A stretch of 64,000 nucleotides of DNA from an uncultured virus (IMG/VR IMGVR_UViG_3300042691_006655). Taxonomy: Duplodnaviria; Heunggongvirae; Uroviricota; Caudoviricetes. Made by a program: the position numbers and the translations under genes. Positions 11,965-60,166 of the stretch are shown here, piece after piece; position 1 is the stretch's first letter; every line of letters begins with the position of its first letter. The stretch lies in the IMG/VR virus record IMGVR_UViG_3300042691_006655; one strand, given 5' to 3'. The notes under the pieces were generated by a model. That model worked only from the letters and a program-made list of their open reading frames with translations, did no database searches and was not told the origin of the DNA.

Positions 11965-12552
11965 TTATAATGGGAAAGAGCCAACTGGTGTGTCGATAGA
12001 AACATTGACACCGAATCCAGCAGCTGCCCCAGTGTTCGAAGTAAAGAAGTTGTATTGGAACTCTACATCAAACTGTTCGATAGCATTTTGTTGTTCGTAA
12101 TCTAATCCTACAGCAGAAATTGCAGTTGGGAATGCATCCACAAATTTATATGATTTAATAGTAGCACCATTACGATCTAATTGATGTACTTGTAAGTCTA
12201 CTTGATAGTCAGTAGGATTGACACGACCATTAGTAGTATTATAGTTTTGAATACCAGATTGCCACTGTTCTAATGCATTACGAATACCGAATGTAGTATC
12301 GTTGTAAATTGTTACAGTCCATGGCTGGAATGTACGCTCGCCTGCAAAATTTACTGGACGACCACGATATAACACAGGTAATGTTTCGATAGTAGAAGCA
12401 GGTAATTGTGCAGCTTTACATAAGAACTGTGCACGTTGTCCAGCCACTATACCTAATGTGACATAAGACGGGAATGTTAATTCAACACGGAATTGATTAG
12501 GGCGTGCACCGCCACCAATCATCTGTGCCTTAAAATCAGCAATATTTGCCAT
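11965..12552 (-). CDS. 19: Tail tube protein
   Basis: GGGARPNQF, YRGRPVNFAGERTFQPWTVTIYNDTTF, VHQLDRNG. Confidence 0.96.
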   Translation of the reverse strand: MANIADFKAQMIGGGARPNQFRVELTFPSYVTLGIVAGQRAQFLCKAAQLPASTIETLPVLYRGRPVNFAGERTFQPWTVTIYNDTTFGIRNALEQWQSGIQNYNTTNGRVNPTDYQVDLQVHQLDRNGATIKSYKFVDAFPTAISAVGLDYEQQNAIEQFDVEFQYNFFTSNTGAAAGFGVNVSIDTPVGSFPL

Positions 12553-14851: not shown

Positions 14852-16429
14852 TCAAAAGTTTAATGGGGGTTTTTCTGGTTTTCCATCTTCAAAAAACCCA
14901 AACGGGGTTAATTCTTCTTCGATCGCTTGCATTTGTTTTTTGTACATCGACTCTCTTAAATTAACATTATTTAAATCTTTAAAATAAGAATTTGAAGTTA
15001 ACCACCCAAATAAAACTAGAGGCATAACTAAGTCATCGTGATATCCTTCATCGGCTTCATACGATCCTTTTTTCTCAATAAAAGTTGATATTTCAGAGAT
15101 TGTATCAGCGTCGTTTATAATTAGTTTATTTTCCTCAACTAGTGCCTTAAAATTATGGCACCCAATTCTTTTAATTTTTTTATCTGTATTTACACCTAAC
15201 TGAGTTTTACCACCACCGAATCCACCAGAGACTGTTTGTCCCATGTTCATTCTTGTAACCATCAATATATTCTCATATTCTAACTCAGAATATAAAATAT
15301 GAGCGACCTGTTCAGAGACATTTATCTCTAAAAGAACCCAAGCATTATTATAATCTTTTCCAACTTTATAGATAACATTTGGGTATAGCAAAGGACTTAT
15401 TTCATTATTTCTGTACTTCGCTACAATTCTATAAGGAACTTCAGTAATATCGACTACTTGAAAAGCAGAATAGTCGCCTCCTACTCCTTTGGCTATATCT
15501 GCAACCAGACAATATGTATGACCAGATTGCGGTTGAACATATACGTCTAAACCATCTTTTTGATATACAATAACATCTGGGCTCATTTTTGATATACAAT
15601 CAGCTCTAACCAATGTTAAAGACGAACCTAAAAAATTACATAAAACTTCCTGTGTAAATTTTAGCTCACCTAAGGCTGCCTTTTGCTCAGCTGCCCATTC
15701 TTCAGTACGCCCAGGAATTTCCCAATATGGAATGAATAGTGGAACAAATCCATTTCTTCCTTTTTCAGCGTCTGTCCAAAACTTCCAAAAATGATTATAT
15801 CCTAGTGGCGTAGATGAAAGTAGAATTTTTGTAGTTTGTCCAGCAGAAATTGTAGGATAGACTGATGTGAAAAATTCTTCTGCCACATTATTTGGAATAA
15901 TTGCAGCCTCATCGACATACAATAAGTTTACCGATTTACCACGAATACCTGATTTTCCTGTGGCTGCAGTAAAAACTTTAGAACCATTTTCTAATTCTAT
16001 ATCACCTTTATTCCAAGTTAAAACTCCCTGTTGCATCCACTTGGGTAACATCTCATACATAATCTGATAACGATCTAAAACTTCTCGAGCAGCGTCTTTT
16101 TTGTTCGCTAGAATCGCTACATTTTTATTAGGTTGGAATACCGTATACCAAAGAATATAAGCTGCAGAAGTTGTAGTTTTACCCTGCTGTCGCCCTTCCA
16201 TTAGAATAACACGACGATTATTATGAATAACATCTATCTTCTTTTTTTGGCAATCATATAATTTAAATAATTGCAATCCGTGATCTAATGTAACAATATA
16301 ACAATAGTTCTCAATAAAATATGTTGGGTCTTGAGAACATTTTAAATATTCTTTAATGTCATCGGGTGTAAACTCAACACTAACCCCAGCTGCTTTTAAG
16401 TTGGAGTTTGAATTATAAATTTCTGCCAT
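14852..16429 (-). CDS. 17: Terminase large subunit
   Basis: GRQQGKTT Walker A, LLYVDEAA Walker B, SSTPLGYNHF, HDDLVM nuclease motif; no intein-sized insertion. Confidence 0.97.
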   Translation of the reverse strand: MAEIYNSNSNLKAAGVSVEFTPDDIKEYLKCSQDPTYFIENYCYIVTLDHGLQLFKLYDCQKKKIDVIHNNRRVILMEGRQQGKTTTSAAYILWYTVFQPNKNVAILANKKDAAREVLDRYQIMYEMLPKWMQQGVLTWNKGDIELENGSKVFTAATGKSGIRGKSVNLLYVDEAAIIPNNVAEEFFTSVYPTISAGQTTKILLSSTPLGYNHFWKFWTDAEKGRNGFVPLFIPYWEIPGRTEEWAAEQKAALGELKFTQEVLCNFLGSSLTLVRADCISKMSPDVIVYQKDGLDVYVQPQSGHTYCLVADIAKGVGGDYSAFQVVDITEVPYRIVAKYRNNEISPLLYPNVIYKVGKDYNNAWVLLEINVSEQVAHILYSELEYENILMVTRMNMGQTVSGGFGGGKTQLGVNTDKKIKRIGCHNFKALVEENKLIINDADTISEISTFIEKKGSYEADEGYHDDLVMPLVLFGWLTSNSYFKDLNNVNLRESMYKKQMQAIEEELTPFGFFEDGKPEKPPLNF

Positions 16430-48620: not shown

Positions 48621-49069
48621 TATGCTGTTAGTCCTACGTAATATTGAAGAGAATTCTTACCAGATGTCCAATCATTATTAACAGTTTTTGTATAAGTTGT
48701 ACTGGCAACTACATTATTACCATCCATCGCCTTAGCCGTATAGCTGTAAACTTTGGTTCTTTCTAAACTAGCCTTATAAGAAATCATTTGATCTAATTTT
48801 TCTTGAGATATCTGGTTAAACTTAGAAACTGTTATAAATTCGGATAGTTTAGTTCTATATTTAATTAAACTATTAAAAGAATCTACATAATATCCAGAAA
48901 TAGTATTTCCTGCAATATTTATGGTATCTGGATTGTTCTCTGTAGGAACTATAACTACAGGATATTCTACTGGGGGTTCAACAGTATCGTCAGTATATGT
49001 AATAGTATGACTAAAAGAAACTATTTCATTTAGTCCTCCTAAATCAAATTCTGAAGGTGTCCAAGCCAT
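48620..49069 (-). CDS. Hypothetical baseplate-region protein
   Basis: 149-aa ORF with TAATG coupling between gp5 and PAAR. Confidence 0.55.
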   Translation of the reverse strand: MAWTPSEFDLGGLNEIVSFSHTITYTDDTVEPPVEYPVVIVPTENNPDTINIAGNTISGYYVDSFNSLIKYRTKLSEFITVSKFNQISQEKLDQMISYKASLERTKVYSYTAKAMDGNNVVASTTYTKTVNNDWTSGKNSLQYYVGLTA

Positions 49070-52000
49070 TACGCTGCCTTAGGAGGTATGGTATCTAATA
49101 ATACAAAGCCAGATGGTTTATATGTTTTATCATTAACCATAGTAAATGCCATTTTTCTTCTAGTTTCAAATTTATATGATACGTGTATCCAACAACTTGA
49201 TGGATGACGATATTCTAAAATTAGTTGATCATATGGTAATATTTTTTCTAGTGCTTGAATTATCTCATATGTTTTTGTGTATTGATCTGGTAACATAATA
49301 CCAATATCAAATGCTAATCCTTTAGGGTGATCAGAAGTAGGTGATTCATTACCAACCACTCCTCTTAATCTGTAACCAGAATTAATCCTCCACTGCTTTT
49401 TATACCCACCAATACCTCCAGGTAAAACTTCTAATGCTGGCTCTAATATATTTTGAGCTGATGTTGCTAAATTACAAACAATTTCTTGAATAGTATATTT
49501 TCTTTCTGGAGAACTTTTACTTTCTTTTAGCATCTGATCTGCTAGTTTATGTTTGCCACCAACACCACCATCTATTAACATACCTAAAACAAAGTTTTTA
49601 GACATTCTAAAATCATTAGTAAATTCTTTAGAAGAGTATATAATTTCGCAATTTACAGGAATTCTTTGTTCTGATCCACCAAGTGGTGCTGGTGCTTCTT
49701 CCGATGCTGTTGGTTTAGGCGCACCAATAACACCTTCTTTTCTCGCCTGTTCCTCTGATGCAGCTCGACCTTCTGGTGTTTCATAGTCATCTGGAGTTTC
49801 TGCTACGGTTCTTTCTTCAAATCTTCTTTCAGGTGGTATTAAATATGGAACTATAGGATTAACAGGGTCGCCTGCTAGTGGTGGGGTTAATTCAACTGTT
49901 TCTGCACCCTCAGCACCATTACCAAATTGTCCCTGAGAGTAATCTGCAGATAAAGTTCCACCAGCCAGCAGATCCATAGCACCAGAAGATTCTATATTAA
50001 CCTTCTCTGCCTTTTGACTAATTGAGTTACCTTGCATTTTAATATCGCCTACTGCTTTAATTAAAAGGTCTCCACCAATCGCAAAAGTAGTATCTTGTGC
50101 AGTACCTATTGATAAATTATTACCAACTTTAACAGTTGCATTTTGTTCTACTTGAATGTTAGCATCAGATCTAGCGAAAATATTAGTATTGCCTTCTACT
50201 GTTAAATTGCATTCGCCCTTTACGTGTATACAGCCATTATTTTCCATTAAAATAAAGTTATCACCAACAATGTAATTAACTTTAGATCCATTAGGATCTA
50301 TTTCGCTAAATGTGCCAGTTCTATGATAAGTATGAATTCTTTCGTAGCCAGGAGTATCGTCAAATTCTTGTACATGTCCCGACTCAGTTTCAAATACTTT
50401 ATTAAATGGATATTGTCCACCATATGCTGCTTCTGGCTGATCCCATGTACCTAAATCTAATGGTTTGGGTATAGAAAGTTTTCTAATAGCATCTTTCTTT
50501 TTTAAAATAGTTCCGTCAATAACGCCACGTGCTAATCTATTTGTGTCAGCTTCGCCAATATATTCTTTTAATGGATACTTACTATTTGGATCTCTAAATC
50601 CAATAGTGGCACTGCCATTAGCTAAAGATTGTGGTGATGGTGCTGGTGTAGATGCATCACCTACTGGTGGAGCATCTGGTATTGGTGCTGCAGCATCTTT
50701 TTCTGGAGCACCGACATCTGGAGATTGCCCATAAAAATATTCGTAATAAGATTTTTTTCTAGCAGCAATATCTGGAGAATTAACACCAACTGCTGTTTTT
50801 GCTGCTAGAAAATAGCCTGGATGATCACTAGGATTAATTTTTGCAGGAACTCTATCTTTAATATACAATGCAGCTACTAATGCAGAAACATTTATATCTG
50901 CGTCTAAAGAATCTGGGTTATTAACTATATCAAGATTTAATCCTGTTTTATTAGCTAAATTTTGATATCGTTGATAATTAGCACGACCAGTTAGCTGAAT
51001 AAATCCACGACCATAATATTTTCCGCCATCTGCGTCGGTTTGGTTGCCAAGAAAACCTTTACCACGTTTAGTGGGTCCATATGCCCAAGAAAAGAATTCT
51101 TCTCTTGATATTCCTTTTTTAGCAGCATTAGAATATTTTGCAATATCTTCTTCTGTTGCAAAAGAGTAAATAGTTTTTAATCTTGACTCAGAATAATTAT
51201 ATGATTCTAACTGAGGGATCCATGCTGATTCTCCACCAGCAATACCCAACAAGGCGCACTTTTGCTCTTTAGTTGTCAAACCAACTTTATCACAAGCTGC
51301 AATTAATGCTTTAATGCCCTCAGAAGATTTAGAAGAATTGCTAGTTGATTTTGGTGGTGGTATCGTTGGTATTGAATTATTAGTTGGTGTTTCTTTAATA
51401 GAAGAACTTGAACTACCACTAACAACTGCACCTCCAGATCCAGTTGTGATAGGATTTCCACTACCATCAATAACTTTAGAAATTTGACTTTCTTTAATCG
51501 CATCTAAATTAGATGGAACTGCCTGAAACTTTATAATATTTTCGCCATAGTTAGTGACTGGATTGCTTATTGTTATTTTTGTTCCGCTGTTAATAGAAAC
51601 AATATAAGTTTCTTTTGGGATTTCAAATCCCAAAACGATCATATTTGCTCTTAAATCTTTAGTTAAATTAGTAGAATTATATTCTGGATCATAAAATTCT
51701 AATTGAGTGCCATTAGTTGGACCAGGAACTGTTCTTAGTTGTAAATTCTCAATTTTACCACCAGAACCAATAGGAGCATCGTCATCACCATCAACTGGTC
51801 CAGGAGCAGATGGAATTCCACCAACAGTACCGAACATGATTGGCTGCTGCATCGCTTCGTCTGCAAACATAATAATAACAGTAGTGCCTTCAACTGGACC
51901 AATTGGAGAATGCCCGATACCATTCATAGCTGCAGAAGTTACTGGTTGTACTGGTGTAGCCCAAGGTAACTCAGAAGTTGGTAGTTGAGTTTTATCATGA

Positions 52001-52086
52001 GTGTGCAACCCAACTATTCTAACTTGACATCGACCTAATTTTAAAGGATCAGATCTATTTTCTACAATACTAAAATAAAAATTCAT
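49069..52086 (-). CDS. 5: Baseplate hub spike gp5 with GH19 glycosidase-like and C-terminal M15 peptidase domains
   Basis: OB-fold DPLKLGRCQVRIVGLH...LPWA; GH19 YYGRGFIQLTGRANY; YPFNKVFETESGHVQEFDDTPGYERIH and beta-helix; INSGYR..SDH..G.AFDI..WIHVSY. Confidence 0.92.
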   Translation of the reverse strand: MNFYFSIVENRSDPLKLGRCQVRIVGLHTHDKTQLPTSELPWATPVQPVTSAAMNGIGHSPIGPVEGTTVIIMFADEAMQQPIMFGTVGGIPSAPGPVDGDDDAPIGSGGKIENLQLRTVPGPTNGTQLEFYDPEYNSTNLTKDLRANMIVLGFEIPKETYIVSINSGTKITISNPVTNYGENIIKFQAVPSNLDAIKESQISKVIDGSGNPITTGSGGAVVSGSSSSSIKETPTNNSIPTIPPPKSTSNSSKSSEGIKALIAACDKVGLTTKEQKCALLGIAGGESAWIPQLESYNYSESRLKTIYSFATEEDIAKYSNAAKKGISREEFFSWAYGPTKRGKGFLGNQTDADGGKYYGRGFIQLTGRANYQRYQNLANKTGLNLDIVNNPDSLDADINVSALVAALYIKDRVPAKINPSDHPGYFLAAKTAVGVNSPDIAARKKSYYEYFYGQSPDVGAPEKDAAAPIPDAPPVGDASTPAPSPQSLANGSATIGFRDPNSKYPLKEYIGEADTNRLARGVIDGTILKKKDAIRKLSIPKPLDLGTWDQPEAAYGGQYPFNKVFETESGHVQEFDDTPGYERIHTYHRTGTFSEIDPNGSKVNYIVGDNFILMENNGCIHVKGECNLTVEGNTNIFARSDANIQVEQNATVKVGNNLSIGTAQDTTFAIGGDLLIKAVGDIKMQGNSISQKAEKVNIESSGAMDLLAGGTLSADYSQGQFGNGAEGAETVELTPPLAGDPVNPIVPYLIPPERRFEERTVAETPDDYETPEGRAASEEQARKEGVIGAPKPTASEEAPAPLGGSEQRIPVNCEIIYSSKEFTNDFRMSKNFVLGMLIDGGVGGKHKLADQMLKESKSSPERKYTIQEIVCNLATSAQNILEPALEVLPGGIGGYKKQWRINSGYRLRGVVGNESPTSDHPKGLAFDIGIMLPDQYTKTYEIIQALEKILPYDQLILEYRHPSSCWIHVSYKFETRRKMAFTMVNDKTYKPSGFVLLDTIPPKAA

Positions 52087-56814: not shown

Positions 56815-56837
56815 ATGTTCAATAAATAGGAATTACT

Positions 56838-57251
56838 ATGAAAATTGATGAAACATTATCTGAAGTTTTTGACGTGCAGCCAATGACCAAAACTGAAATT
56901 GTTGATAAGACTGGAAACATTATTCCAGAAGTTAATAATAAAGTTGAAGACGATTACGAAATAACAAGAAATAATTTAAGAGTTATATTACAGCAGGGAC
57001 AAGAAGCTCTACAAAAATCCCTAGATGTTGCGATGCAATCAGAACACCCAAGAGCATTTGAGGTTGTTGGGAATCTTATGAAACAACTTGCTGACGTAAA
57101 TCAACAGTTACTAGATTTACATATGCAAAAACAAAAATTAGATGCACCTAAAGAATCGTCTAAAAAAGAAGTGACTAATAACAATGCTATCTTTGTAGGT
57201 AGCACTGCTGAGTTGAATAAGTTAATCAAGAATATGTCTAAAGGAGATTGA
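56838..57251 (+). CDS. 16: Terminase small subunit
   Basis: DDYEITRNNL, SEHPRAFEVVGNLMK, TNNNAIFVGSTAELNKL; AATAAATA at 56821-56828 upstream. Confidence 0.93.
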   Translation: MKIDETLSEVFDVQPMTKTEIVDKTGNIIPEVNNKVEDDYEITRNNLRVILQQGQEALQKSLDVAMQSEHPRAFEVVGNLMKQLADVNQQLLDLHMQKQKLDAPKESSKKEVTNNNAIFVGSTAELNKLIKNMSKGD

Positions 57252-57252
57252 T

Positions 57253-57975
57253 ATGGCATTACCTATTATGAGCACCCCAACCTATACAATGATTGTTCCA
57301 TCAAGTGGACAACCAGTTAAGTATAGACCATTTTTAGTTAAAGAAGAAAAGGCTCTATTAATAGCACAGCAATCAGAAGATTTATCTACAATGGTAGAAA
57401 CCCTAAAGGGGGTTGTTAAATCTTGTGTGCAAGACAACATTGATGTTGAAAAATTAGCTACGTTTGATTTAGAGTATATGTTTACTCAAATTCGTGGAAA
57501 ATCTGTAGGAGAAACTGTTGATTTAATATTCGCTTGTGATGAAGATCATGGCGAACAAAATGCAAAGGCAAGATCAACAGTAACTATTGACTTAACTACA
57601 TTAGTGGTAGATAAATCACCAGACCATACAAATAAAATTCAATTATTTGACGATGTAGGTGTTATTATGAAGTACCCTACAGTAGATATTATTAAAAAAC
57701 TTGAGGGTATTAACACTGAAGATTTAGACAAAGTGTTTGATATTATGGCGTTATCTATTGATTACATTTATAAGTCAGATGAAATTTTTTATAGCAAAGA
57801 ACAAACACATAATGATTTGGTACAATTTATTGGCAATTTAACATCTGATCAGTTTTTAAAAATTCAGAAGTTTTTTGAAACTATGCCAAAAATTAAGAAA
57901 CAGATAGAATACAATTGTCCAGTTTGCGGAAAACACCATGTTAAGGTGTTGGAGGGTCTCCAGAATTTTTTTTAG
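57253..57975 (+). CDS. 26: Baseplate hub assembly protein
   Basis: MALP..TPTY, KYRPFLVKEEKALL, DLEYMFTQIRGKSVGE, FFETMPK, CPVC, ends LEGLQNFF. Confidence 0.92.
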   Translation: MALPIMSTPTYTMIVPSSGQPVKYRPFLVKEEKALLIAQQSEDLSTMVETLKGVVKSCVQDNIDVEKLATFDLEYMFTQIRGKSVGETVDLIFACDEDHGEQNAKARSTVTIDLTTLVVDKSPDHTNKIQLFDDVGVIMKYPTVDIIKKLEGINTEDLDKVFDIMALSIDYIYKSDEIFYSKEQTHNDLVQFIGNLTSDQFLKIQKFFETMPKIKKQIEYNCPVCGKHHVKVLEGLQNFF

Positions 57976-58160
57976 TATTACTCAGTCATGAGGCATTAGA
58001 GAATTATTATAAAATGAATTTCTCTCTGATGCAATATCACAAATATTCGTTGGCTGAGTTAGAAGAAATGATACCATTTGAAAGAGAGGTATATGTATAC
58101 ATGTTGATACAATATCTCGAAGAAGAAAAGAAAAGAATAGAATCTAAAACGAGGGTATAA
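57972..58160 (+). CDS. gp51-like short ORF (missed by the ORF track), probably also or mainly the -1 frameshift extension of gp26; first ATG at 58014
   Basis: -1 frame reads LVLLSHEALENYYKMNFSLMQYHKYSLAELEEMIPFEREVYVYMLIQYLEEEKKRIESKTRV; its TAA overlaps the next ATG (TAATG). Confidence 0.85.
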   Translation, partial: LVLLSHEALENYYKMNFSLMQYHKYSLAELEEMIPFEREVYVYMLIQYLEEEKKRIESKTRV

Positions 58161-60166
58161 TGACAGTTATAACTGCATCACCAAAAGGTTTCAATAGAAT
58201 GCTAGAATTACAAGAGCAGGCTAATGTTCATTTAATGACCATGGCAAAAGTTCTTGAAACTATGAAGTCTGTTGATATGGCTGCACTAATAGAGACTAAA
58301 AAACTTGAAAATAATAACAAAGCAAATTTAGAAAATGCAGATAAAAGTCTAAAAATACAAAATGAACAGCTAAAACTTGAAAAACAAAGTTTAACATCTC
58401 AAAGAGATCTTATAAAATCTTTAAAAGATCAAGATAGAATTAGATCAAAAGAATCTGAGGCTATTAAAAATATAGCAGAGAGCATGGAAACTTTTAAAAC
58501 CATGGGTGATAAGTTAGAAGAAATTAAAAAAGGATTTAAAGAAAAATTTAGTGCCCAAGGAATAAGAGAAGGTTTACTTAACAAACTTAATATTGGTGGC
58601 ATTTTTAATAAAGCATTATCTCGTGAAAAATTCATTAAACAACAAAAAGCATTGGGATCAGAAAAATCTAGATCTGAACTCAAACAAGATTTTGAAGGTG
58701 CTCAAAAAGCATCCAAAGATATAAAGAAAAATGAAAAAGAATTAGCCGAATACAAGAAAGTAACTGGATTATCTGATTCTGAACTAGCAAAAACAAAAGA
58801 AGGTAAACGATTACTTGCAAAAAGACAAGAATCTACCGATGAGTATGCAAAATATGATAAACGTGCTGAACTCGTAAGACAAGAGAATCCATCTTTTAAA
58901 CCTCTTGATAAAAATACTGATCTCATTAAGAAAGAAACGCCAACTCAATTACATGCTGATAAAAGTGAACAAGAAGAAACTATGCTTGAACAAAACAAGA
59001 TGGTTGGTGAACAAACAGATTTACTTAAAGCAATTGCTGAGAATACTGGTGGTGAAAAGAAAGATACTACAAGAACAAAACCAAAAGAAGAACAGAAAGA
59101 TACTGGTGGCGGGGGGCTATTAGGTAAGTTAATGGGTGGTGGTGGAATGGGTAAGGCTCTTAGCTCGCTGAAAGATTTTGGTATTGGTATTGTTTTGGTC
59201 GCTGGTGGACTTTGGGTAGCATCTAAGGCATTTAAAAGTTTTGGAGATGTTGAGTGGGATGATGTTGGCAAAGGTGTAGTTGTTTTAGGTGCACTCGTTG
59301 CTGCTGCAGTAGGACTGGATAAAATGAAAGGATCAATATTAAAAGGTGCTTTCGTTTTAGGTGCTTTATCTTTAGCAACATATGGTATTAGTCAAGTATT
59401 TAAAACATTCTCCGAACTAGATTGGGAAACTATCGGTAAGGGAATGACAGCGATCGCTGGGTTGGGTGTAATTGGCGCATTAGCTGGAGCTGCTGCACCA
59501 TTATTATTAAAAGGTGCTCTAGCAATGGGTGCTTTAGGTGGTGCTTTGTGGGTTATTGGCGAAGCAATGCAAGCTGTCGGACAAGGATTTCAAGACTTAA
59601 CAGATGGTCTTGAAAGATTATCTCAATTAGATGGTGGTAATCTATTAAAAGTTGCTGGTGGGGTACTTGCTCTAAGTGGTGCTATGGTAGCATTTGGTGC
59701 TTCTCAAGCAGTTGCTGGTGTTGGTAATCTTGTTGGTAGATTACTAACGATTGGAACAGATTCTCCAGTTGATCAACTAATAAAAATTGGTGACAGAGGA
59801 GAAGGAATAGAAAAAGCAGCAAATGGCATGGAAAAATTAGGTTCTGCCATGGTTGCTTTTAATAAAGTAGATAAAAAATCAATGGATGTTGTTAATGACT
59901 TCCCATGGCTAAAGGCTACAGCATTTGCTGCAGCAGGTGGTGCTATGCAAGTTGATGGAGTTAAAGTATACAACGCATCAAAGGGTAATGCCGATGAAAA
60001 TGCTAAGACAGAAGTAGCAAAAGGTGGTAATACAAATGTCGTTAACGCACCAGTAAATAATGTCACTAGACAAACCAATATAATAAAACCTGCTATTAGA
60101 AATAGAGAATCCACTCAGGCAAAAGTTCAATGGGAACGAATGGGTGGTGGTGGCAATAATTTCTAA
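58160..60166 (+). CDS. Putative tape measure / baseplate hub protein (gp29-like slot)
   Basis: 668 aa; charged helical N-half, Gly/Ala-rich hydrophobic repeats (FKSFGDVEWDDVGKG / FKTFSELDWETIGKG), NTNVVNAPVNN tail; follows gp26/gp51. Confidence 0.7.
   Translation: MTVITASPKGFNRMLELQEQANVHLMTMAKVLETMKSVDMAALIETKKLENNNKANLENADKSLKIQNEQLKLEKQSLTSQRDLIKSLKDQDRIRSKESEAIKNIAESMETFKTMGDKLEEIKKGFKEKFSAQGIREGLLNKLNIGGIFNKALSREKFIKQQKALGSEKSRSELKQDFEGAQKASKDIKKNEKELAEYKKVTGLSDSELAKTKEGKRLLAKRQESTDEYAKYDKRAELVRQENPSFKPLDKNTDLIKKETPTQLHADKSEQEETMLEQNKMVGEQTDLLKAIAENTGGEKKDTTRTKPKEEQKDTGGGGLLGKLMGGGGMGKALSSLKDFGIGIVLVAGGLWVASKAFKSFGDVEWDDVGKGVVVLGALVAAAVGLDKMKGSILKGAFVLGALSLATYGISQVFKTFSELDWETIGKGMTAIAGLGVIGALAGAAAPLLLKGALAMGALGGALWVIGEAMQAVGQGFQDLTDGLERLSQLDGGNLLKVAGGVLALSGAMVAFGASQAVAGVGNLVGRLLTIGTDSPVDQLIKIGDRGEGIEKAANGMEKLGSAMVAFNKVDKKSMDVVNDFPWLKATAFAAAGGAMQVDGVKVYNASKGNADENAKTEVAKGGNTNVVNAPVNNVTRQTNIIKPAIRNRESTQAKVQWERMGGGGNNF

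Follow-up and report, generated by a model that had tools for sequence, protein, structure and literature searches.

The gp26-like gene of this uncultured virus ends in a run of eight T that leads into its stop codon, while the -1 reading frame continues open across that stop for another 62 codons. The locus therefore raises the question of whether the two frames are read as separate proteins or joined by a programmed -1 ribosomal frameshift, and whether the products correspond to the paired G and GT tail assembly chaperones of lambda-type phages. From sequence comparison, we consider it highly probable that this T4-like gene makes a short and a long chaperone by programmed -1 frameshifting, with an upstream Shine-Dalgarno (SD) sequence probably aiding the shift.

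The gp26 locus and its two reading frames

The window, that is, the whole 64 kb stretch of DNA that was analysed, covers the part of a T4-like myophage genome that encodes structural proteins (gp23, gp18, gp19, gp5 and others), and the sequencing runs that contain its DNA are mostly of freshwater origin. A preliminary description had proposed the fusion of gp26 to a gp51-like frame. Its coordinates for the GGAGG, the T run, the heptamer, the TAG and the -1 frame are all correct, as are the lengths of 240 aa for gp26 and 302 aa (240 + 62) for the fusion. The features are as follows:

56821..56828, + strand: late-promoter-like AATAAATA, 5' of the terminase small subunit gene
57253..57975, + strand: gp26-like gene, 240 aa, putative short form (TAC-N, G-like), from PF12322, phrog_150 and a predicted model
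57951..57955, + strand: GGAGG, an internal SD-like sequence 10 nt 5' of the heptamer, candidate 5' stimulator
57966..57972, + strand: slippery heptamer T TTT TTT (U_UUU_UUU), in phase and abutting the stop
57973..57975, + strand: TAG, stop of the gp26 short form
57972..58160, + strand: -1 frame extension, 62 codons (TAC-C, T-like; homologue of the C-terminal part of T4 gp51)
57980..58059, + strand: long predicted stem-loop, 7 nt past the heptamer, with a basal stem of 57980-57988 and 58051-58059
58160..60166, + strand: tape-measure-like gene, 668 aa (phrog_4372), whose ATG overlaps the extension stop

The T run occupies 57966-57973 of the + strand, where the 3' end of gp26 reads AAT TTT TTT TAG, and is one of only two runs of at least eight T on that strand of the window. 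The -1 frame has no stop between 57945 and the TAA at 58158-58160, which overlaps the ATG of the downstream ORF as described previously. That ORF, called tape-measure-like from its sequence alone, matches the tail length tape measure protein family phrog_4372 over residues 338-524 (E 1.7e-14). gp26 itself matches PF12322 with an E-value of 5.5e-59 and 199.9 bits against a curated cut-off of 24.5, and the extension matches phrog_634 (E 3.7e-25). An assembly error in the T run was ruled out, given that contigs from 4/4 DNA runs, representing four studies, one run perhaps being the window's own source, cross the run without an indel. Four substitutions were seen within the extension, and none of them changes the protein read in the -1 frame.

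The T4 late promoter consensus is TATAAATA. ATAAATA occurs once on the + strand of the window versus 14 times on the - strand, and the transcript carrying gp26, the extension and the tape measure gene probably starts at AATAAATA (56821..56828). Between a gp54-like gene and gp26 lies a gp16-like terminase small subunit gene (56838-57251), about 40 kb from the gp17-like ORF (14852-16429). This position is a mark of the lineage, since the gp16-like gene is found near gp26 in 77/80 close loci. Where T4 gp5 has its lysozyme domain, a 1005-aa gp5-like protein elsewhere in the window (49069-52086) has at its C-terminus a domain of glycoside hydrolase 19 (chitinase class) and a second one that is endolysin-like.

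Searching IMG/VR with gp26 gave 80 loci, one of which is the window sequence itself and thus not independent. Three of them end at a contig edge, and in the 77 that retain the junction the gp51-like frame is always -1. The set was enlarged by 18 annotated regions from GenBank and by 180 loci retrieved with the gp26 proteins of S-PM2, Vi01 and Melnitz-2. Profile searches of the combined set returned 282 gp26-family matches in 279 sequences, 270 of which are followed by a gp51-like extension. The phase is -1 in 270/270 and 0 or +1 in none, so the constant phase between gp26 and the next ORF that the preliminary description had singled out for comparison is found in every split locus. The other 12 matches comprise four cut by contig ends, one with too short a flank, three in-frame fusions (gp51 of T4, Octan and RB16) and four gp26 copies without an extension match (those of T4, Octan and RB16, and that of the Vibrio phage VPALA). 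Loci split in the -1 phase span Kyanoviridae, Straboviridae, Ackermannviridae, Pootjesviridae and other groups. In a wider set, 125 of the best 150 family representatives have an F-F-type motif no more than two residues from the end.

T4 gp26 and gp51, and the fold of the gp26 N-domain

T4 gp26 (208 aa) and gp51 (249 aa) belong to the same family as the window gene (PF12322/phrog_150), and they correspond to its short and long forms, respectively, residue for residue across the junction. On the phrog_150 profile, the window gp26 occupies positions 5-232 and the extension positions 232-276, contiguously, with T4 gp26 covering 14-235 and T4 gp51 covering 13-280. In an alignment with nine gp51 relatives, no gap separates the last residues of gp26 from those of the extension, apart from the initial extension residue, which the aligner displaced from the single free column. 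In T4, Octan, RB16 and 13 IMG/VR relatives, the long form is an in-frame gene and the short form is a second gene that lacks the heptamer. The fused gp51 is present in these 16 loci, and T TTT TTN occurs in 0/14 of the short gp26 copies in view, which count as few events because all are from related Straboviridae; the 14 copies still have a Phe near the end.

In RB16 (L096:1501-2794), gp54 is followed by the long gene (51) and, immediately after it and in the same orientation, the short gene (26). This tandem order may preserve the duplication; in T4, genes 26 and 51 are instead divergent. One gp51 relative (L290:1182-1955) is split mid-gene by a frameshift, unlike the near-identical L285, and probably reflects a sequencing error. 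The record of Acinetobacter phage Octan (L093:3253-5386) labels gp28, gp26 and gp51 all as tape measure assembly chaperones. T4 gp26 weakly matches the gp28 family phrog_1140 (E 0.00094), which hints at a third paralogue.

The predicted gp26 model (pLDDT 87.5) starts with a beta-hairpin and three helices. Compared with 48,161 PDB representatives, the whole model gave 3FGX, 2OB9, 3KLU and 5IR0 as its best four matches, with Z-scores of 7.5, 7.4, 7.2 and 4.6, where values below 8 denote possibly common folds according to the tool. Residues 1-92 alone returned the same four on top (Z 7.4, 7.3, 6.9 and 5.0; the next at 3.9), with an rmsd of 3.3-4.4 over 79-85 residues. All four are tail assembly chaperones according to the accessible portions of two reports (PMC9603447, PMC12987554). 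The structure comparison suggested in the preliminary description thus singles out this class of protein. Foldseek likewise ranked the HK97 protein 2OB9 first (probability 0.94, E 0.052), with no PDB match at E <= 0.001. In the predicted model, gp26 residues from about 5 to 90 have the tail-assembly-chaperone fold, with moderate scores and a specific ranking. The C-terminal 150 residues gave weak matches within the whole-model search (Z <= 3.9). At the sequence level, Pfam tail assembly chaperone (TAC) families gave no significant match to gp26 N-domains (best PF16462, E 0.14, in 2/75) and no match to 64 extensions, and a profile search of gp26 against PDB sequences found nothing (best E 4.8). 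A predicted complex of the extension with the tail tube protein gp19 (window 11968-12552) scored 0.00, with the partner fold being uncertain, and counts neither for nor against an interaction.

The reading of the two proteins as a G/GT pair, put forward in the preliminary description, is supported by the in-frame T4-type gp51 and by the chaperone fold. A reading in which the frameshift is real and the pair acts only in assembly of the baseplate hub (gp5/gp27) is one we regard as unlikely, a judgement that is independent of the decoding question. It draws on T4, whose gp26 and gp51 are listed by Leiman et al. (2010) as hub assembly chaperones, gp51 being "of unknown function" and required yet absent from the particle; a frameshift is not mentioned in the accessible part of that review (PMC3004832). 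It also draws on the length of gp26, about 150 residues more than HK97-type chaperones, and on gene order, in that the gene precedes gp5 in Vi01 and VPALA. The next gene is a small ORF, and not a tape measure gene, in phiM7, Melnitz-2, Cr30 and RHph_I34, with a tape-measure-related ORF downstream in 45/80 close loci. Against a role confined to the hub stand the fold of the N-domain, the short/long architecture and the tape measure gene directly downstream here, and in one GenBank record both gp26 and gp51 already bear the name "tape measure protein assembly chaperone". Furthermore, the hub and tape measure roles need not differ, since the T4 tape measure protein gp29 is itself counted as a hub protein in the accessible part of the same review (PMC3004832).

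Slip site, upstream Shine-Dalgarno sequence and extension

Among 192 unique junctions, 191 were anchored by a protein motif. With a limit of 80% nucleotide identity between clusters they fall into 78 groups, and protein identity among the junction relatives ranges over 17-82%. The remaining junction, in which the stop lies further off, was left out of the count, and T TTT TTT is present there by eye. An in-phase T TTT TTN occurs in 76/78 clusters and 176/191 unique junctions, so a heptamer of the X XXY YYZ type, for which the preliminary description had proposed a comparison of T4-like genomes, is conserved in nearly all clusters. The A-site codon in the 76 clusters is TTC in 41, TTT in 26, TTA in 7 and TTG in 2; the remaining two clusters, both Vi01-like, have R ATT TTC. 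In E. coli measurements, both U_UUU_UUC and U_UUU_UUU proved prone to shifting, tetramers of the form U_UUY ranked second, and UUY permits cognate re-pairing, according to the accessible part of the source (PMC4066793).

Codon choice around the site is strongly skewed relative to counts expected from the codon use of the same genes. The codon before the site, which encodes S, N, D or A, ends in T in 76/78 clusters (46.4 expected), and the P-site codon ends in T in 78/78 (49.0 expected). The T|TTT context is found at only 138/966 internal Phe codons. The resulting z-scores of about 4-7 overstate independence because the clusters are related; the junction pattern nonetheless spans several families. 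Two alternative X XXY YYZ sites were also observed. An overlapping A AAT TTT precedes the U run in eight unique junctions (57961-57972 in the window, and relatives), and G GGT TTR lies five codons 5' of the site in ten.

The SD-like sequence sits within conserved L-E-G codons, and therefore synonymous choices were examined. The Glu codon is GAG in 42/61 clusters (17.3 expected), the Leu codon ends in G in 32/55 (14.9 expected), and GGAGG as such occurs in 25/78 (4.2 expected). Under a published rule that places an SD-like sequence 6-17 nt 5' of the motif (PMC4066793, accessible part), 57/78 clusters have one, versus 33 +/- 4 under synonymous recoding with a maximum of 43 in 300 recodings; the 21/78 without one include the Vi01 type. 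In the window, the stretch before the slip site has an anti-SD pairing energy of -9.8 kcal/mol. The GGAGG noted earlier 10 nt before the heptamer thus belongs to a feature under selection at synonymous sites across relatives.

Structure 3' of the site was less uniform. The 4-bp CTCA/TGAG hairpin of the preliminary description exists in the window, yet all four pairs are kept in only 4/78 clusters, and it was rejected as a conserved stimulator. A longer fold at 57980-58059 (-25.4 kcal/mol, z -4.69) has its basal stem predicted in 8/11 of the closest unique junctions, and may be a 3' stimulator confined to the closest relatives. Across 40 relatives RNAalifold gave no consensus structure, pairing of the window structure was 61.1%, barely above the 59.5% of shuffled sequences, and folding just 3' of the site was mildly in excess across clusters (mean z -1.6 versus -0.2 to -0.7 elsewhere).

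These measurements also bear on transcriptional slippage, in which RNA polymerase would add one U within the T run so that part of the mRNAs would carry both frames fused. The run of 8 T found here and in 22/78 clusters leaves room for this, UUUUUUU has been noted as a possible transcriptional slippage site (PMC4066793, accessible part), and at long runs the ribosomal and transcriptional routes may both act. We consider this origin of the fusion quite improbable. The run is only 6 T long in 50/78 clusters and 4 T in two, and the A-site Phe is encoded preferentially by TTC (TTT in 26/69 versus 43.5 expected), the opposite of what selection for a long run would give. In addition, the first T of the run is invariably the last base of a codon, and selection keeps the SD at a set distance, two constraints that concern a ribosome but not a polymerase; nor does the fixed phase of the two frames fit this route.

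The extension itself shows little sign of independent translation. Over the 78 clusters, the first ATG of the -1 frame is scattered over codons 1-33, and a ribosome site (anti-SD pairing of -5 kcal/mol or better) accompanies it in 4/78, versus 50/78 for gp26 starts. The window's first ATG (58014, codon 15) has a pairing energy of -2.9 kcal/mol versus -8.7 at the gp26 start, in agreement with the preliminary description, which had found no properly spaced ribosome site there. Of 64 aligned extensions, 24 have Thr where the window has Met 58014, 22 have Met and 17 have Leu, Val or Ile. Conservation begins well upstream of it, with His6 in 56/64 and Leu9 in 60/64. The homologues thus share neither a start codon nor a ribosome site of their own for this frame. 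A start codon overlaps the gp26 stop in 11/78 clusters and an ATG lies within the first four codons in 24/78, which makes reinitiation possible in some clusters.

In GenBank, the two frames are joined in 0/15 of the split loci examined; 12/15 carry a separate small gene with inconsistent start positions, and the extension is left unannotated in Ah1, VPALA and Vi01. The view implied by that separate annotation, namely a small protein made by coupling or from its own ATG that acts with gp26 in trans, finds some footing in the overlapping start codons and is very improbable, as the extension has no conserved start or ribosome site, has conserved residues upstream of its first ATG, and as a separate protein would not account for the heptamer selection, the fixed phase or the fact that phages carrying a fused gp51 have lost the heptamer.

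Two groups depart from the common site. In Ackermannviridae (Vi01 L091:2229-2405; L179-L198) the junction reads R ATT TTC ATY TAA, with neither heptamer nor SD, and contains only the tetramer T TTC. The -1 frame there is closed by a stop 1-13 nt upstream, which pins the slip to these codons. In VPALA (L089:1917-2130) gp26 ends in CTT TTC AGA TAA and is accompanied by an unannotated 67-codon -1 frame, whose match to the extension profile is weak, below threshold (E 0.005) and outside the 270; possibly a single tRNA slips before the rare AGA codon. We tentatively propose, while holding it to be rather doubtful, that family-wide the SD in the L-E-G codons is under synonymous selection to tune the shift, and that Ackermannviridae (possibly also VPALA) use an SD-free, single-tRNA slip on U_UUC. 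If true, SD plus heptamer, the tetramer by itself and separate genes for the two forms would make up a natural series for how the ratio of short to long chaperone is set.

Proposed mechanism and relation to known systems

Under the favoured frameshift reading, a short and a long chaperone would come from one gene because some ribosomes slip back one base on the U run. Most ribosomes would read 240 codons and stop at the TAG, giving the short form (gp26/TAC-N/G-like). In a minority of ribosomes, the two tRNA-Phe occupying the P and A sites on U_UUU_UUU would shift their pairing back by one base; contact between the GGAGG and 16S rRNA through base pairing, and a pause at the stop codon, would probably assist. 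The slip would add 62 residues to yield a 302-aa long form (the gp51 equivalent/TAC-NC/GT-like). By analogy with lambda, and given the fold and the gene order, the shared part would coat the tape measure protein and the extension would recruit the tail tube protein. We infer all three of the central elements, namely that the slip takes place on the ribosome, that the SD acts as a stimulator and that the long form is minor. The result corrects the annotation, in that the gp26 and gp51-like frames, nowhere joined in the GenBank split loci, would form one product, and it supports reading the "hub assembly" genes 26 and 51 of T4 as G and GT chaperones.

The abstract of Vladimirov et al. (2022) reportedly names genes 26 and 51 and describes the frameshift as conserved in several T4-like groups. 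The preliminary description knew of no account of such a shift for T4-like phages; it is apparently in print, since that study is cited, in the accessible parts of two later papers, for -1 frameshift signals of the poly-T type in the TAC-N genes of these phages and for the use of a short gene plus a fused long gene by some of them (PMC12846349, PMC10885494). Both the poly-T signals and the two-gene solution were found here too, in our case starting from an uncultured freshwater lineage with the site U_UUU_UUU. The window site is a well-supported further example of a principle that appears to have been published in 2022 for T4-like phages, and the measured selection on the SD, together with the Ackermannviridae variant that has a tetramer and no SD, may go beyond what is in print. 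In the open literature searched, no experiment testing the shift in a T4-like phage was found.

Like dnaX and IS911 of E. coli, in which an internal SD stimulates the shift, the window and the 57 clusters above have an SD-like sequence 6-17 nt before the motif. Unlike theirs, the motif here is U-rich, and no consensus 3' hairpin or pseudoknot was found over 40 relatives. The fold of the gp26 N-domain matches HK97 gp13 (2OB9). The gene differs from those of lambda and HK97 in its 240-aa short form, which carries some 150 additional residues at the C-terminus with a CxxC motif at their end, in its extension of only 62 aa, in its predicted slip on U's, and in having no significant sequence-level match to Pfam TAC families. 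Xu, Hendrix and Duda (2004) reportedly described a conserved -1 frameshift of tail assembly chaperone genes, as in lambda gpG/gpGT. The lambda slip site is G GGA AAG, and in lambda the region common to both forms coats the tape measure protein, with the extension recruiting the tail tube protein. The locus described here resembles gpG/gpGT in encoding a short and a putative long form in one gene situated upstream of the tape measure gene.
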